Assembly (NCBI GenBank): GCA_038889235.1 | Contig: JAWAHN010000001.1 | Span: 734,499 to 766,498 of the forward strand | Direction of reading: 5' to 3' | Origin: Candidatus Jordarchaeales archaeon | GTDB taxonomy: Archaea; Asgardarchaeota; Jordiarchaeia; Jordiarchaeales; Freyrarchaeaceae | DNA: 32,000 nucleotides | Shown here: positions 5,401-26,524 of the stretch, piece by piece | Position numbering within the stretch: position 1 is the first letter of the stretch | Layout: every line of letters starts with the position of its first letter | Program-made: the position numbers and the translations under genes | The notes under the pieces: model-generated | Told to the model about the DNA's origin: nothing | Seen by the model: the letters and a program-made list of their open reading frames with translations, nothing else | The model's database searches: none

Positions 5401-6744
5401 TTAAACTATTTCTGTAAGGGAGAGCTTAACATAACCATCATAAGTTAAGGACACAGAAATATGGTAGTATGGGGTCCAAGGTTTAATGCCGCAGACAAGC
5501 GTATAGCCGGCTTCTTCTTGGAACAAGAATATGCGACTTGCTAACCCTTGAACCGCACGCGAAGCCTTTGAACATACACCAACTATACATATATTATCAA
5601 GCGCAAGCGAGTTCAATAAAGAGTATATTAAGGATGAGACTCCACTATTACCCAATGCAACCTCCATGTAATCAAAGTTGAAAAACAGGAGGATGTACTT
5701 CCCCTGTCTCCCTGACAGGAGATCCTTAATATCGCTTGCGATCTTATCTAAATTTAATTCGCCGGAGACTTGAATAGGAAAATACAAGGGGGACATTTTA
5801 AAACAAAGAGGGGGAGGAGTGTGTAAAAGTGGCTCCATGCCTATCGAAAGAACAATTCCTCCGTTATTTATGAAGGACTTGATGATATTTAGAAGAATTA
5901 AGGCACGGATTAATGAGTGAACTTTTACGTCAAAAATCAGGAGATTAAGGCCTTCATTAGACAACCCTCCTAGGAGTCGGTCAAATGATTCTGAACCAAA
6001 GCTTATGAGTTTCTCTCCAAGAACGCCGGTACAAGCACCAGTTTCTAGTGCTAAACCCTGAATTTTATCCAGAATGCTCCTTGGAAGGTTTTCAATATCC
6101 TTCAATGGTCGAGAAAGAGGCAGTAAGCGTCCTCCCAAAATGGTATAGAGAAAGCGTGACTCGCGAATTTTCAGACCACAGAGCTTCTTAACAAAAGCTT
6201 TCCTGATCACTCGTCCATCTTGTTCCTTAACTTCAAGGACGATAACGCCGTCAGCGATTTGCTCTAAGTGCTCGTTTCTTCTAACAGTAACTATGCTACG
6301 AAGACTTGCATGCCTAAGAAATGAGACATAGAGTTCCATGACGGAGACAGGGTCTAAGCCTATTGCGTTAGAAACTCTTTCGAAATCATCAATAAAGATC
6401 AAGGCACTCTTCACTTTCTCGGCCCGCTCGTAGAGGTACCTTAGGAACATAGGAAGGTTTGACCGCAAAACAGCGTCATAGATGTTCTCTTCCTGAGGAA
6501 AAGGAAGATCATTTACATCTATAACCTCACATAAGTAGCGGTTTAAGTCGCTATAGCGGCTAAGCAGAGCAGTACGATCAATTCCACAGGAGACGTAGAA
6601 TCCGCACCCAACATCGCCCACTTCTCTCAGTACTTCAAAACCAAAAGCAGTTTTTCCAGTTCCAGAATCCCCGTAAACAAGCAGGAGGTTATTCCCTTCT
6701 AAACCGAAGAAACTCTTAATAAGTTTAAACAAGGCGTTCACCAA
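5401..6744 (-). CDS. RecA/KaiC-superfamily P-loop ATPase with a degenerate second domain (GvpD/RAD55-like)
   Basis: Walker A GDSGTGKT; Walker B-like LIFIDD; LEQIADGVIVL; the second domain starts SFGSESFDRLLGGL and lacks a Walker A motif. Confidence 0.7.
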   Translation of the reverse strand: MVNALFKLIKSFFGLEGNNLLLVYGDSGTGKTAFGFEVLREVGDVGCGFYVSCGIDRTALLSRYSDLNRYLCEVIDVNDLPFPQEENIYDAVLRSNLPMFLRYLYERAEKVKSALIFIDDFERVSNAIGLDPVSVMELYVSFLRHASLRSIVTVRRNEHLEQIADGVIVLEVKEQDGRVIRKAFVKKLCGLKIRESRFLYTILGGRLLPLSRPLKDIENLPRSILDKIQGLALETGACTGVLGEKLISFGSESFDRLLGGLSNEGLNLLIFDVKVHSLIRALILLNIIKSFINNGGIVLSIGMEPLLHTPPPLCFKMSPLYFPIQVSGELNLDKIASDIKDLLSGRQGKYILLFFNFDYMEVALGNSGVSSLIYSLLNSLALDNICIVGVCSKASRAVQGLASRIFLFQEEAGYTLVCGIKPWTPYYHISVSLTYDGYVKLSLTEIV

Positions 6745-6826
6745 ATCTAAAATTATAACGTGACTGCAAATAAATGCCTGACGCGAAAAATTTGTAAGAG
6801 CATTTTTGAGAAAGTGACACGAAAAA

Positions 6827-6834
6827 TTTAATAA
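6827..6834 (+). promoter_or_regulatory. TATA box of tRNA-Asp gene
   Basis: TTTAATAA preceded by purine-rich CGAAAAA (BRE-like), 26-33 nt upstream of the mature tRNA 5' end. Confidence 0.5.
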
Positions 6835-6859
6835 CCTTTTAAGGTACAGGTTTGCTGTA

Positions 6860-7018
6860 GCCCCGGTGGTGTAGCCACCATAAAGAGGCTGTAACGGCCG
6901 AGCATACGGGACAGTGACAAGCCCCTAATGTCAACGACGGTGGCAGAACTCCCGCGACCCGGGTAGTATATCCATCTGATGGATATACTAGGGATTTCAA
7001 ATCCCGGCCGGGGCGCCA
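6860..7018 (+). tRNA. tRNA-Asp(GUC) with four introns (17/17a, 32/33, 37/38, 53/54)
   Basis: Removing 6877-6894, 6913-6928, 6934-6948 and 6964-6995 gives a 78-nt cloverleaf: GCCCCGGTGGTGTAGCC|CGGCCGAGCATACGGGAC|TGTCA|CTCCCGCGACCCGGG|TTCAAATCCCGGCCGGGGCGCCA. It has a 7-bp acceptor stem, G73, encoded CCA, and the anticodon loop CT-GTC-AC. Each intron forms a BHB or relaxed BHB motif. Confidence 0.88.
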
Positions 7019-7029
7019 CTCCTTTTCTT
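7019..7029 (+). terminator. Pyrimidine/T-rich archaeal terminator after tRNA-Asp
   Basis: CTCCTTTTCTT immediately after CCA; a similar CTTCCTTTTCTC follows tRNA-Glu. Confidence 0.45.
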
Positions 7030-7072
7030 AATCCGTTTCGTTACAATCTCGGCAGTGCAGGTTTACGTAAAT

Positions 7073-7080
7073 TATTTAAG
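7073..7080 (+). promoter_or_regulatory. TATA box of tRNA-Pro gene
   Basis: TATTTAAG 25-32 nt upstream of the mature 5' end. Confidence 0.5.
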
Positions 7081-7104
7081 TTTTGTGATGGGCAAGGTTT
7101 AGTA

Positions 7105-7249
7105 GGGCGGGTGGTCTAGAGCGAGAGCCAGCGGAGAACTTGGTATGATTCCCTCTTTGAGGGAGTAAAACCGGGTTTGGGACCCGGAGGCCCTGGGTTC
7201 AATGCTGTGCATGATTTATGCAGGCGAACAAATCCCAGCCCGCCCACCA
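7105..7249 (+). tRNA. tRNA-Pro(UGG) with three introns (15/16, 25/26, 58/59)
   Basis: Removing 7120-7138, 7150-7169 and 7203-7231 gives 77 nt: GGGCGGGTGGTCTAG|CTTGGTATGAT|ACCGGGTTTGGGACCCGGAGGCCCTGGGTTCAA|ATCCCAGCCCGCCCACCA. The anticodon arm CCGGG-TT-TGG-GA-CCCGG is intact. The 58/59 intron has a perfect GTTC/GAAC central helix. The second intron's boundary is chosen by best BHB fit and could shift by a few nt. Confidence 0.88.
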
Positions 7250-7283
7250 TGCTTATAAAGCATTTTTTGGAGGGAGCTTCGAA

Positions 7284-8849
7284 GTGAAGTTTATGTTGAA
7301 GGGATGCATAGAGCTCAGTGGTAACCTTCCAGAAAATGCTACAAGCGAAATTGAAAAGTTTTTGAGTGACATTTATGGAAAAGTATTCTTGAAAGGTGCT
7401 CCTCAGGGTCGTGAGGAGGAAGGTGCACATTTAACTGCGTGGAGAGTGGAGGGGAATAGGTTTTATGTCGAGATAAAAAGTGGTAGGTATGTGCGTGCAC
7501 ATGTAGCACTCATTAGATTAAGGAACGTATTGGCAGAGTTTTTGGGTTCTAAGTTTGGGGTTGGTGTTAGGTCTTGCAAGGCGCTTGATTACATCTTAGA
7601 ATTTGAGCTCGAAAAGGAGCCTATTGAACCTGTAAGGGTTCTTTTTGCAAGAGACGTGAAGTTTGATGGTAGAAAGGTTACTGTTTCCTTGGAGGAGTTA
7701 GATGACGCTGCTCTAGAAAAGAATTATCCAGATCGCATAATTAACCGCGTACGTGAGAAAGTTTCGAGACAATATGTTTCCGGTAAGAAGGAATTTACTC
7801 GTACTGTTAAACGTAAAGTAAAAGGGTTTGAGCGGTACAGGTTAAACGAGGACCCAACGGATATTGCTGTTAAACTCGGTTGGGTCAAGGAGTACCCTGC
7901 AGCGGGAGTATGGCAAATAATGCCGCCCATGGCCGCATTAATCAGGGCCATGGAAACGTTAATAGTAGAAAGAGTTGCCAAGCCTCTTGGTTTCCAAGAA
8001 GTTATGCTTCCGCGCCTAATCCCACTCGAGGTTGAATACAGAAAGGGGCATTTTGGAATCGCAAACGAGATAATCTGGGCTTGCCCGCCTATCTCCCGAG
8101 ATCCGAAGGACTTTGAAGACATTGTGGATTATGTCGAAATAACCGGCGGGCCGCCACCCCCAGAAATGTTGAAAGAAAAACTTAGACCACCCGTGTACGG
8201 ACTTTCATACGCCCAATGCGAGCCTTTCTACGAAATGTTCCACAAGGAGATAGTGGACTTAGATATTCTCGAAAGAGAGCCTATAATGCTTTTCGACAGG
8301 AACGGTCCAACATACCGATGGGAGAGTGGCGGGATTAGAGGACTTGAGAGGCTTAATGAGTTTCACAGGATAGAGTTTGTTTTTCTCTCAACACCAGAAA
8401 AATGTGTTGAAATAAGGGATGAAGTACTTGAAAAAACTGAGAGACTTGTTGACGAAGTATTGGACTTAGACTACAGAGTGGATGCCACCACAGCAGTGTA
8501 TCTCGAGCACGCGGGGAAAAGCGGTGAGGACGAAGAATATGGAGGATTAGTTAAGACGTACGATTTAACTGTTCTTTTACCTTTCCAGACGAAAAGCAGA
8601 CCGGAAGCTGAGCTTGAAATAGCCAGCTTCCATGTTCACACGGACTTTTATGCCAAACGGTTCAATTTCAAAGACAAAAAGAGAAGGACAGTTTTTACTG
8701 GATGCGCTGGACTCGGCCCGTCTAGGTTCGCCTACGTTTTCCTGGTAAGACACGGATTTGACTTTGAAGAATGGCCTGTCGAGGTTAAAAAGCACATAGG
8801 GGATAGGCTACCCGAGCCACCGCGTATGCTAACATGGCCAAAGAACTAG
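7284..8849 (+). CDS. serS2: Methanogen-type (type 2) seryl-tRNA synthetase
   Basis: N-terminus MKFMLKG, SGRYVRAHVALIRL, and Zn-site motifs YAQCEPFY, RWE..G..R..EF.RIE and TGCAGLG. The ORF-track start (7218) lies inside tRNA-Pro; GTG 7284 follows a GGAGGG RBS. Confidence 0.93.
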   Translation: MKFMLKGCIELSGNLPENATSEIEKFLSDIYGKVFLKGAPQGREEEGAHLTAWRVEGNRFYVEIKSGRYVRAHVALIRLRNVLAEFLGSKFGVGVRSCKALDYILEFELEKEPIEPVRVLFARDVKFDGRKVTVSLEELDDAALEKNYPDRIINRVREKVSRQYVSGKKEFTRTVKRKVKGFERYRLNEDPTDIAVKLGWVKEYPAAGVWQIMPPMAALIRAMETLIVERVAKPLGFQEVMLPRLIPLEVEYRKGHFGIANEIIWACPPISRDPKDFEDIVDYVEITGGPPPPEMLKEKLRPPVYGLSYAQCEPFYEMFHKEIVDLDILEREPIMLFDRNGPTYRWESGGIRGLERLNEFHRIEFVFLSTPEKCVEIRDEVLEKTERLVDEVLDLDYRVDATTAVYLEHAGKSGEDEEYGGLVKTYDLTVLLPFQTKSRPEAELEIASFHVHTDFYAKRFNFKDKKRRTVFTGCAGLGPSRFAYVFLVRHGFDFEEWPVEVKKHIGDRLPEPPRMLTWPKN

Positions 8850-8927
8850 AATAGAAAAGTTGCTAAAGAAGAGGGAGTTAGTAGTCGTTTCTTGATTCGT
8901 AAGGTTGCTTCGGGTTTGGTTCCAGCA

Positions 8928-23808: not shown

Positions 23809-25589
<1,781 letters not shown>

Positions 25590-26387: not shown

Positions 26388-26524
26388 GCCTCGGTGGTGT
26401 AGCCACCCTATAGGCTGCAACGGCCAAGCATAAGGGGCTCAAGGTTCATAACCTGCCCACTCGACCCCTAGACCCGGGTTAGTCTTTAAGGACTAAGGGA
26501 ATTCAAATCCCGGCCGAGGCACCA
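26388..26524 (+). tRNA. tRNA-Glu(CUC) with three introns (17/17a, 34/35 inside the anticodon, 53/54)
   Basis: Removing 26405-26420, 26441-26460 and 26479-26501 gives 78 nt: GCCTCGGTGGTGTAGCC|CGGCCAAGCATAAGGGGCTC|TCGACCCCTAGACCCGGG|TTCAAATCCCGGCCGAGGCACCA. The 34/35 intron has a perfect GGGC/GCCC central helix and an AGGTT/AACCT inner helix. Confidence 0.9.

Follow-up and report, generated by a model that had tools for sequence, protein, structure and literature searches.

How is a tRNA put together when its whole anticodon lies on a five-nucleotide exon between two introns, and does one of these introns have to leave before the other can be cut? The question is raised by a tRNA-Asp(GUC) gene at positions 6860–7018 (plus strand) of the window, i.e., of the whole 32,000-nt stretch of DNA analysed here. 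The window belongs to genome G000 (Jordarchaeia, Asgard), whose linked sequencing studies are hot-spring metagenomes, and it was compared with four relatives (G001–G004) and with Freyarchaeum (G006), a member of the same order. The tRNA coordinates of G006 agree exactly with those listed for Freyarchaeum in Supplementary Data 4 of PMC11291895, which puts the window in the sister family within the class, the name of that family being tentative. A preliminary description of the window had proposed a strictly ordered splicing, with the intron at 32/33 removed before the one at 37/38.

The gene structure was obtained with an intron-aware parser for tRNAs, for which 29 intronless Asgard tRNAs had served as the training set, and with ARAGORN on the spliced sequence, while ARAGORN and Rfam called no tRNA in the unspliced window. 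Four introns and an encoded CCA (7016–7018) were found, all features being on the plus strand. Exon 1 (6860–6876, tRNA positions 1–17) is followed by the 18-nt D-loop intron 1 at 17/17a (6877–6894), which has a 4/4 paired central helix including two G-U pairs. Exon 2 (6895–6912, positions 17a–32) ends with C32 at 6912 and contains at 6907–6910 (tRNA 27–30) the exon strand of the helix of intron 2, a 16-nt intron at 32/33 (6913–6928). According to the parse, the motif of intron 2 is relaxed: the helix CGGG/CCCT is paired at 3/4 positions with a C27.U mismatch, the inner stem has 2 bp and the outer stem is absent. The micro-exon TGTCA (exon 3, 6929–6933) consists of U33, the anticodon GUC and A37, and the canonical 15-nt intron 3 at 37/38 (6934–6948) carries the helix strand GCAG at 6943–6946. 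Exon 4 (6949–6963, positions 38–53), the 32-nt intron 4 at 53/54 (6964–6995, helix 3/4 with an 11-bp inner hairpin) and exon 5 (6996–7018, positions 54–76) complete the gene, exons 2 and 4 being placed by the parse and exons 1 and 5 also by in-silico splicing. A BRE/TATA-like motif at 6820–6833 (plus strand), approximately 27 nt upstream of the gene, has a similar equivalent at the same place in G001–G004 and, judged by the archaeal promoter consensus, probably acts as the promoter.

In-silico splicing of all 16 intron combinations produced an ARAGORN call only with all four introns removed, namely a 78-nt tRNA-Asp(gtc) with all stems complete and a perfect cloverleaf. The bulge-helix-bulge (BHB) helices at the four junctions were paired at 4/4, 3/4, 4/4 (once intron 2 is out) and 3/4 positions. 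With a strict or relaxed motif at every junction and a canonical cloverleaf as the product, the inserts are, as far as sequence can tell, BHB-type introns. The boundaries at 32/33 and 37/38 are fixed by relatives lacking one or both introns at exactly these sites: both are present only in G000 and G003, the 32/33 intron alone in G001, G002 and G004, and neither in G006. Together, the unique call after full splicing and the boundaries confirmed by relatives argue against a chance pattern. The location of the whole Asp anticodon on a 5-nt exon between the two introns, as given in the preliminary description, was thus borne out by the parse, the in-silico splicing and the relatives, and its coordinates for TGTCA, TGACA (6915–6919) and GCAG proved exact. 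Alternative boundaries of intron 2 were ruled out by the sequence, and a position of intron 4 at 54/55 by G003, where this intron begins with C. Exon skipping from the 32/33 donor to the 37/38 acceptor would have a helix of just 2/4 pairs and would lose the anticodon. No reads covered positions 6500–8900 in four RNA runs of the same hot-spring studies, and none fell on serS either.

The splicing enzymes are present in the G000 genome as two EndA genes (alpha- and beta-like), located in the regions of C1:1056473 and C3:444309, and one RtcB gene. One of the two EndA genes matches beta-subunit models, and by such matches the endonuclease is of the two-subunit type. The Asgard EndA has been described as a two-subunit type carrying a loop (L1) linked to relaxed motifs, and in other archaea the two-subunit endonuclease tolerates relaxed motifs (PMC5829648). 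The intron load of the genome is high: 42 of the 43 tRNA genes recognized by the intron-aware parse contain introns, up to five per gene, as compared to only 14 tRNA genes called by ARAGORN in the whole genome, which means that standard finders overlook most of its tRNAs. The parser favours paired helices, and a small number of its results are uncertain and in need of curation. Five introns were parsed in Arg-GCG (L317; C1:485157-484986, minus strand) and in Ser-CGA (L316; C1:1018102-1018308), the one in the variable arm of the latter being uncertain; the published Asgard tRNA table has at most four per gene (PMC11291895). Three more intron-containing tRNA genes are located in the window: Pro-TGG (7105–7246, three introns), Phe-GAA (24212–24359, four introns and a 7-nt anticodon exon) and Glu-CTC (26388–26521, three introns). 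The 37/38 intron of this Phe gene has adjacent D-box- and C-box-like words, and that of Trp (L321) shows the layout expected of a box C/D RNA. The genes of the Ala-TGC/Ala-CGC pair (C1:1088321 and C1:481105) and of the Gln-TTG/Gln-CTG pair (C1:359467 and C1:443389) are identical, introns included, except for the wobble base, which suggests recent duplication or gene conversion.

The motifs of the 32/33 and 37/38 introns overlap. Because they share A6928 and U33, the two motifs exclude each other and can only be cut one at a time. Constrained folding at 65 °C (an assumed growth temperature), in the absence of the D- and T-arm introns, gave a folding cost of 3.1 kcal/mol for a first cut at 32/33 against 6.3 kcal/mol at 37/38, and for the second cut 3.5 kcal/mol at 37/38 after 32/33 against 7.0 kcal/mol at 32/33 after 37/38; these are nearest-neighbour energies, which take no account of base modifications, tertiary structure or the enzyme. 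Neither a temperature of 37 °C nor the presence of the other introns altered the ranking, which was also the same in G003. Ligation also mattered in the model, since the 37/38 motif cost 7.6 kcal/mol when the 32/33 site was cut but unligated and 3.1 kcal/mol when ligated, a difference overstated by a model without coaxial stacking. Modelled in this way, removal of the 32/33 intron first is supported over removal of the 37/38 intron first. The true preference may be smaller than these figures suggest; introns whose splicing is indispensable include some with costs as high as the 6.3 kcal/mol of the 37/38-first route.

Taken as a whole, the data are best explained, in our opinion with reasonable though far from complete confidence, by a kinetically preferred 32/33-first splicing by EndA and RtcB. 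The tRNA-Asp gene would be an ordinary essential gene in an Asgard archaeon rich in introns; the two-subunit EndA and RtcB would process its transcript, and the 32/33 motif, being cheaper in the precursor, would usually be cut and ligated first. The joining of C32 to U33 would then give the 37/38 intron its complete, strict canonical motif. The order deduced for the cell from this modelling would represent a strong kinetic preference rather than an absolute rule.

A stricter version, in which the 37/38 intron is uncuttable until the 32/33 intron has been cut and ligated, was the one originally proposed for this locus, and it seems unlikely to us. Its direction and the sequential character of splicing agree with the folding costs and with the motif overlap, and the strict motif, with an outer stem of 4 and a 4/4 helix, exists only after the splicing of intron 2. 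Furthermore, folding predicts that splicing in the wrong order ends in a trapped product, and this path may thus have been selected against; a strict order has also been published for nested archaeal introns (PMC3978253, citing Sugahara 2007 and Tocchini-Valentini 2009). It is the word "obligatory" that the data do not support. The GCAG strand had been thought to require the joining of C32 to U33 for pairing; according to the parse and folding, this is true of the full 4/4 helix, but a 3/4 helix forms in the precursor, with an A.G mismatch replacing the C32-G pair and an outer stem of 1 (parse) instead of 4. Stand-alone introns with an equal defect exist in the same genome. In the final context, 67 of the 96 central helices of G000 introns have four pairs and 29 have a mismatch, which in 13 of the 96, including Asp 32/33, affects the outer pair; the Trp 18/19 and Gly-TCC 29/30 introns have a permanent outer A.G mismatch, the former with an outer stem of 0 and an inner stem of 2. 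The folding cost reaches at least 6.5 kcal/mol even in the best context for 12 of the 96 introns. Genes with such weak motifs are presumed to be working because they are single-copy, and if they do work, the 37/38-type motif should be cleavable in the precursor as well, since those stand-alone introns are equally weak.

The sequestration that had been added to the strict model found no support. The micro-exon was suggested to be masked by the complementary TGACA within intron 2, which extends to GTGACA (6914–6919, plus strand), a complement of mature positions 33–38. The match is real, and its chance probability is 1.4% for intron 2 alone, but across all introns it does not exceed expectation: among 107 parsed introns, 3 carry a perfect 5-base complement to the exon sequence that follows, where 1.4 would be expected (P = 0.17), so matches of this type are not enriched genome-wide. 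In folded precursors containing intron 3, TGACA was paired to the exon at 3–12%, and its scrambling in silico shifted the cost of the 37/38 motif by no more than 0.5 kcal/mol, which speaks against sequestration. After a first removal of intron 3, GTGACA was predicted to pair with positions 33–38 at a level of at least 96%, raising the cost of the 32/33 motif from 4–5 to 8–11 kcal/mol (intron 3 and the D- and T-arm introns out). In the kinetic scheme it would be a tolerated complement, which barely affects the precursor and slows the finishing of the rare wrong-order product. Both genomes that have intron 3 carry the complement (as TGATA in G003), and the three that lack intron 3 have none or a shortened one (none in G002, just three pairs in G001), a distribution which fits 32/33-first processing, the two copies in G000 and G003 not being independent. 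An origin of intron 2 as an antisense copy, with 9 of 12 bases matching the reverse complement of mature positions 27–38, is not claimed, because the helix itself demands three of these matches and the others are not conserved in the orthologues.

The opposite possibility, that there is no meaningful order or that the 37/38 intron goes first, with the anticodon stem forming early and a relaxed enzyme cutting the canonical site as a bulge-helix-loop, appears improbable. The anticodon stem was indeed 76–88% formed after removal of the D- and T-arm introns, and it is compatible with a 3-bp 37/38 helix, while the 32/33 motif must open it. Canonical introns were also cut fastest in vitro, although on a different substrate (PMC5829648), and G001, G002 and G004 splice the 32/33 intron out of a continuous loop. 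However, this route is about 3 kcal/mol costlier, and its product resists further splicing: the remaining 32/33 motif costs 7.0 kcal/mol in G000 and 5.6 kcal/mol in G003, in comparison with 2.9–4.1 kcal/mol in the species with intron 2 only.

The comparison with the orthologues indicates that the family has had its 32/33 intron for a long time. Its helix is ACGG/CCGT (4/4) in G004 and CGGG/CCCT in the genus, with a leftover U opposite C27; this is a compensatory change at position 28, in keeping with a BHB motif at this junction, and it accounts for the retained U. Intron 1 (17/17a) is present in G001–G004 and absent in G006. The LeuRS tree placed G000 outside (G001,(G002,G003)) with support values of 98 and 100, in weak agreement with the SerRS and EF-2 trees. 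Nevertheless, Asp introns 1, 2 and 3 are 89, 94 and 100% identical between G000 and G003 (window 6860–6963 versus L002:1544-1647), in contrast to 48–85% for twelve other orthologous introns, including Asp intron 4 (62%). The tract, about 100 nt long, may have been transferred between the two lineages; otherwise its conservation has been unusually strong and intron 3 was lost twice. Intron gain by recombination at tRNA genes has a precedent (PMC3293823). One could go further and see in the intron pair a one-way ratchet, in which, after the gain of the 37/38 intron, the six-base complement dead-ends the wrong-order products and introns 1–3 have moved by recombination between non-sister species; we regard this as a rather doubtful extension. 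With up to 2 mismatches allowed, no other tRNA of G000 contained a possible donor of intron 2 or 3, a class-wide pattern search (mostly noise) gave no Asp gene beyond those of G000–G004, and a metagenome scan recovered one real Asp gene, identical to that of G002. In G003 (L002:1301-1800), the DNA upstream of the Asp-Pro tRNA pair is strongly enriched in A and C, and the DNA downstream in G and T; the G000 window has only a mild skew change there. The SerRS gene at 7218–8849 of the window was closest to the methanogen-type models PRK00960 and TIGR00415, with scores below the cut-offs; the called ORF shares bases with the 3' end of tRNA-Pro, and its true start is probably later. That the Asp gene is non-functional or an assembly artefact is hardly credible: its transcript was not seen and standard finders overlook it, but it is the sole tRNA-Asp gene found in G000 by the intron-aware parse, yields a perfect cloverleaf after splicing, is kept in four relatives in synteny with Pro-TGG and serS, and has an intron 3 identical to that of the independent genome G003.

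The micro-exon layout is a recurring by-product of the high intron density in the class. Internal exons of 5 nt are also present in G000 in Leu-CAG, one Met-CAT and Ala-GGC, and the anticodon is on a 7–8-nt exon in Phe, Ser-CGA and Arg-GCG. In Leu-CAG and Met-CAT the helix changes from 3/4 before to 4/4 after splicing, as in Asp. The Ala-GGC gene (L320; C1:695286-695151, minus strand) has its 5-nt exon between introns at 53/54 and 58/59, the second helix being 4/4 paired before and after splicing, i.e., a micro-exon without structural dependence. In tRNA-His (L315; C3:441898-441751, minus strand; L323–L326), an arrangement read by eye, an apparent 37/38 intron is separated by a 1-nt exon (A38) from a 38/39 intron, the helix of which pairs with the 3' end of the 37/38 intron (4/4 pairs in G004, 3/4 in G001 and G002, and at most 2/4 in the same register in G000 and G003). 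Such a reverse dependence would be a better candidate for a strict order than Asp.

Ordered splicing of nested tRNA introns and four-intron Asgard tRNAs are already published, and the Asp gene brings no new mechanism. Its value is that of a short, defined substrate for asking how a relaxed Asgard endonuclease and RtcB keep a five-base exon, with natural controls in sister species having the 32/33 intron alone. According to PMC3728597 and PMC3978253 (citing Sugahara 2007/2008 and Tocchini-Valentini 2009), it is known for nested archaeal introns that the other introns must be processed before the last motif can form; these pre-tRNAs resemble Asp in that the BHB of the later intron is completed by removal of its neighbour, but in Asp the dependence concerns a single helix pair together with the outer stem, a relaxed motif being possible beforehand. 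The Thermoproteales have a maximum of three introns per tRNA gene (PMC4033280), as opposed to four in the G000 Asp gene. Freyarchaeia and Atabeyarchaeia have introns in 92–95% of tRNA genes, several in more than half of them and up to four; no analysis of splicing order or micro-exons was found in the part of this source consulted (PMC11291895). The tRNA-Asp of Freyarchaeum has introns at 45/46 and 53/54 and, unlike G000, none in the anticodon loop. Its tRNA-Ala(GGC) (L271:3642-3824), with four introns including those at 33/34 and 37/38, is the closer parallel, in that a micro-exon flanked by two anticodon-loop introns holds its entire anticodon; with an exon of 4 nt and a helix going from 2/4 to 4/4 upon splicing, its dependence is stronger than that of Asp. 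This gene and the adjacent Phe-GAA gene were not seen in the published Supplementary Data 4 table of PMC11291895. Finally, in tRNA-Phe and tRNA-Ile of Cyanidioschyzon merolae, RT-PCR shows that the 37/38 intron is removed last and that the order follows motif stability (PMC3728597). The Asp order, predicted from folding, is of the same kind, with the difference that the C. merolae motifs fold independently, while those of the G000 Asp gene overlap.
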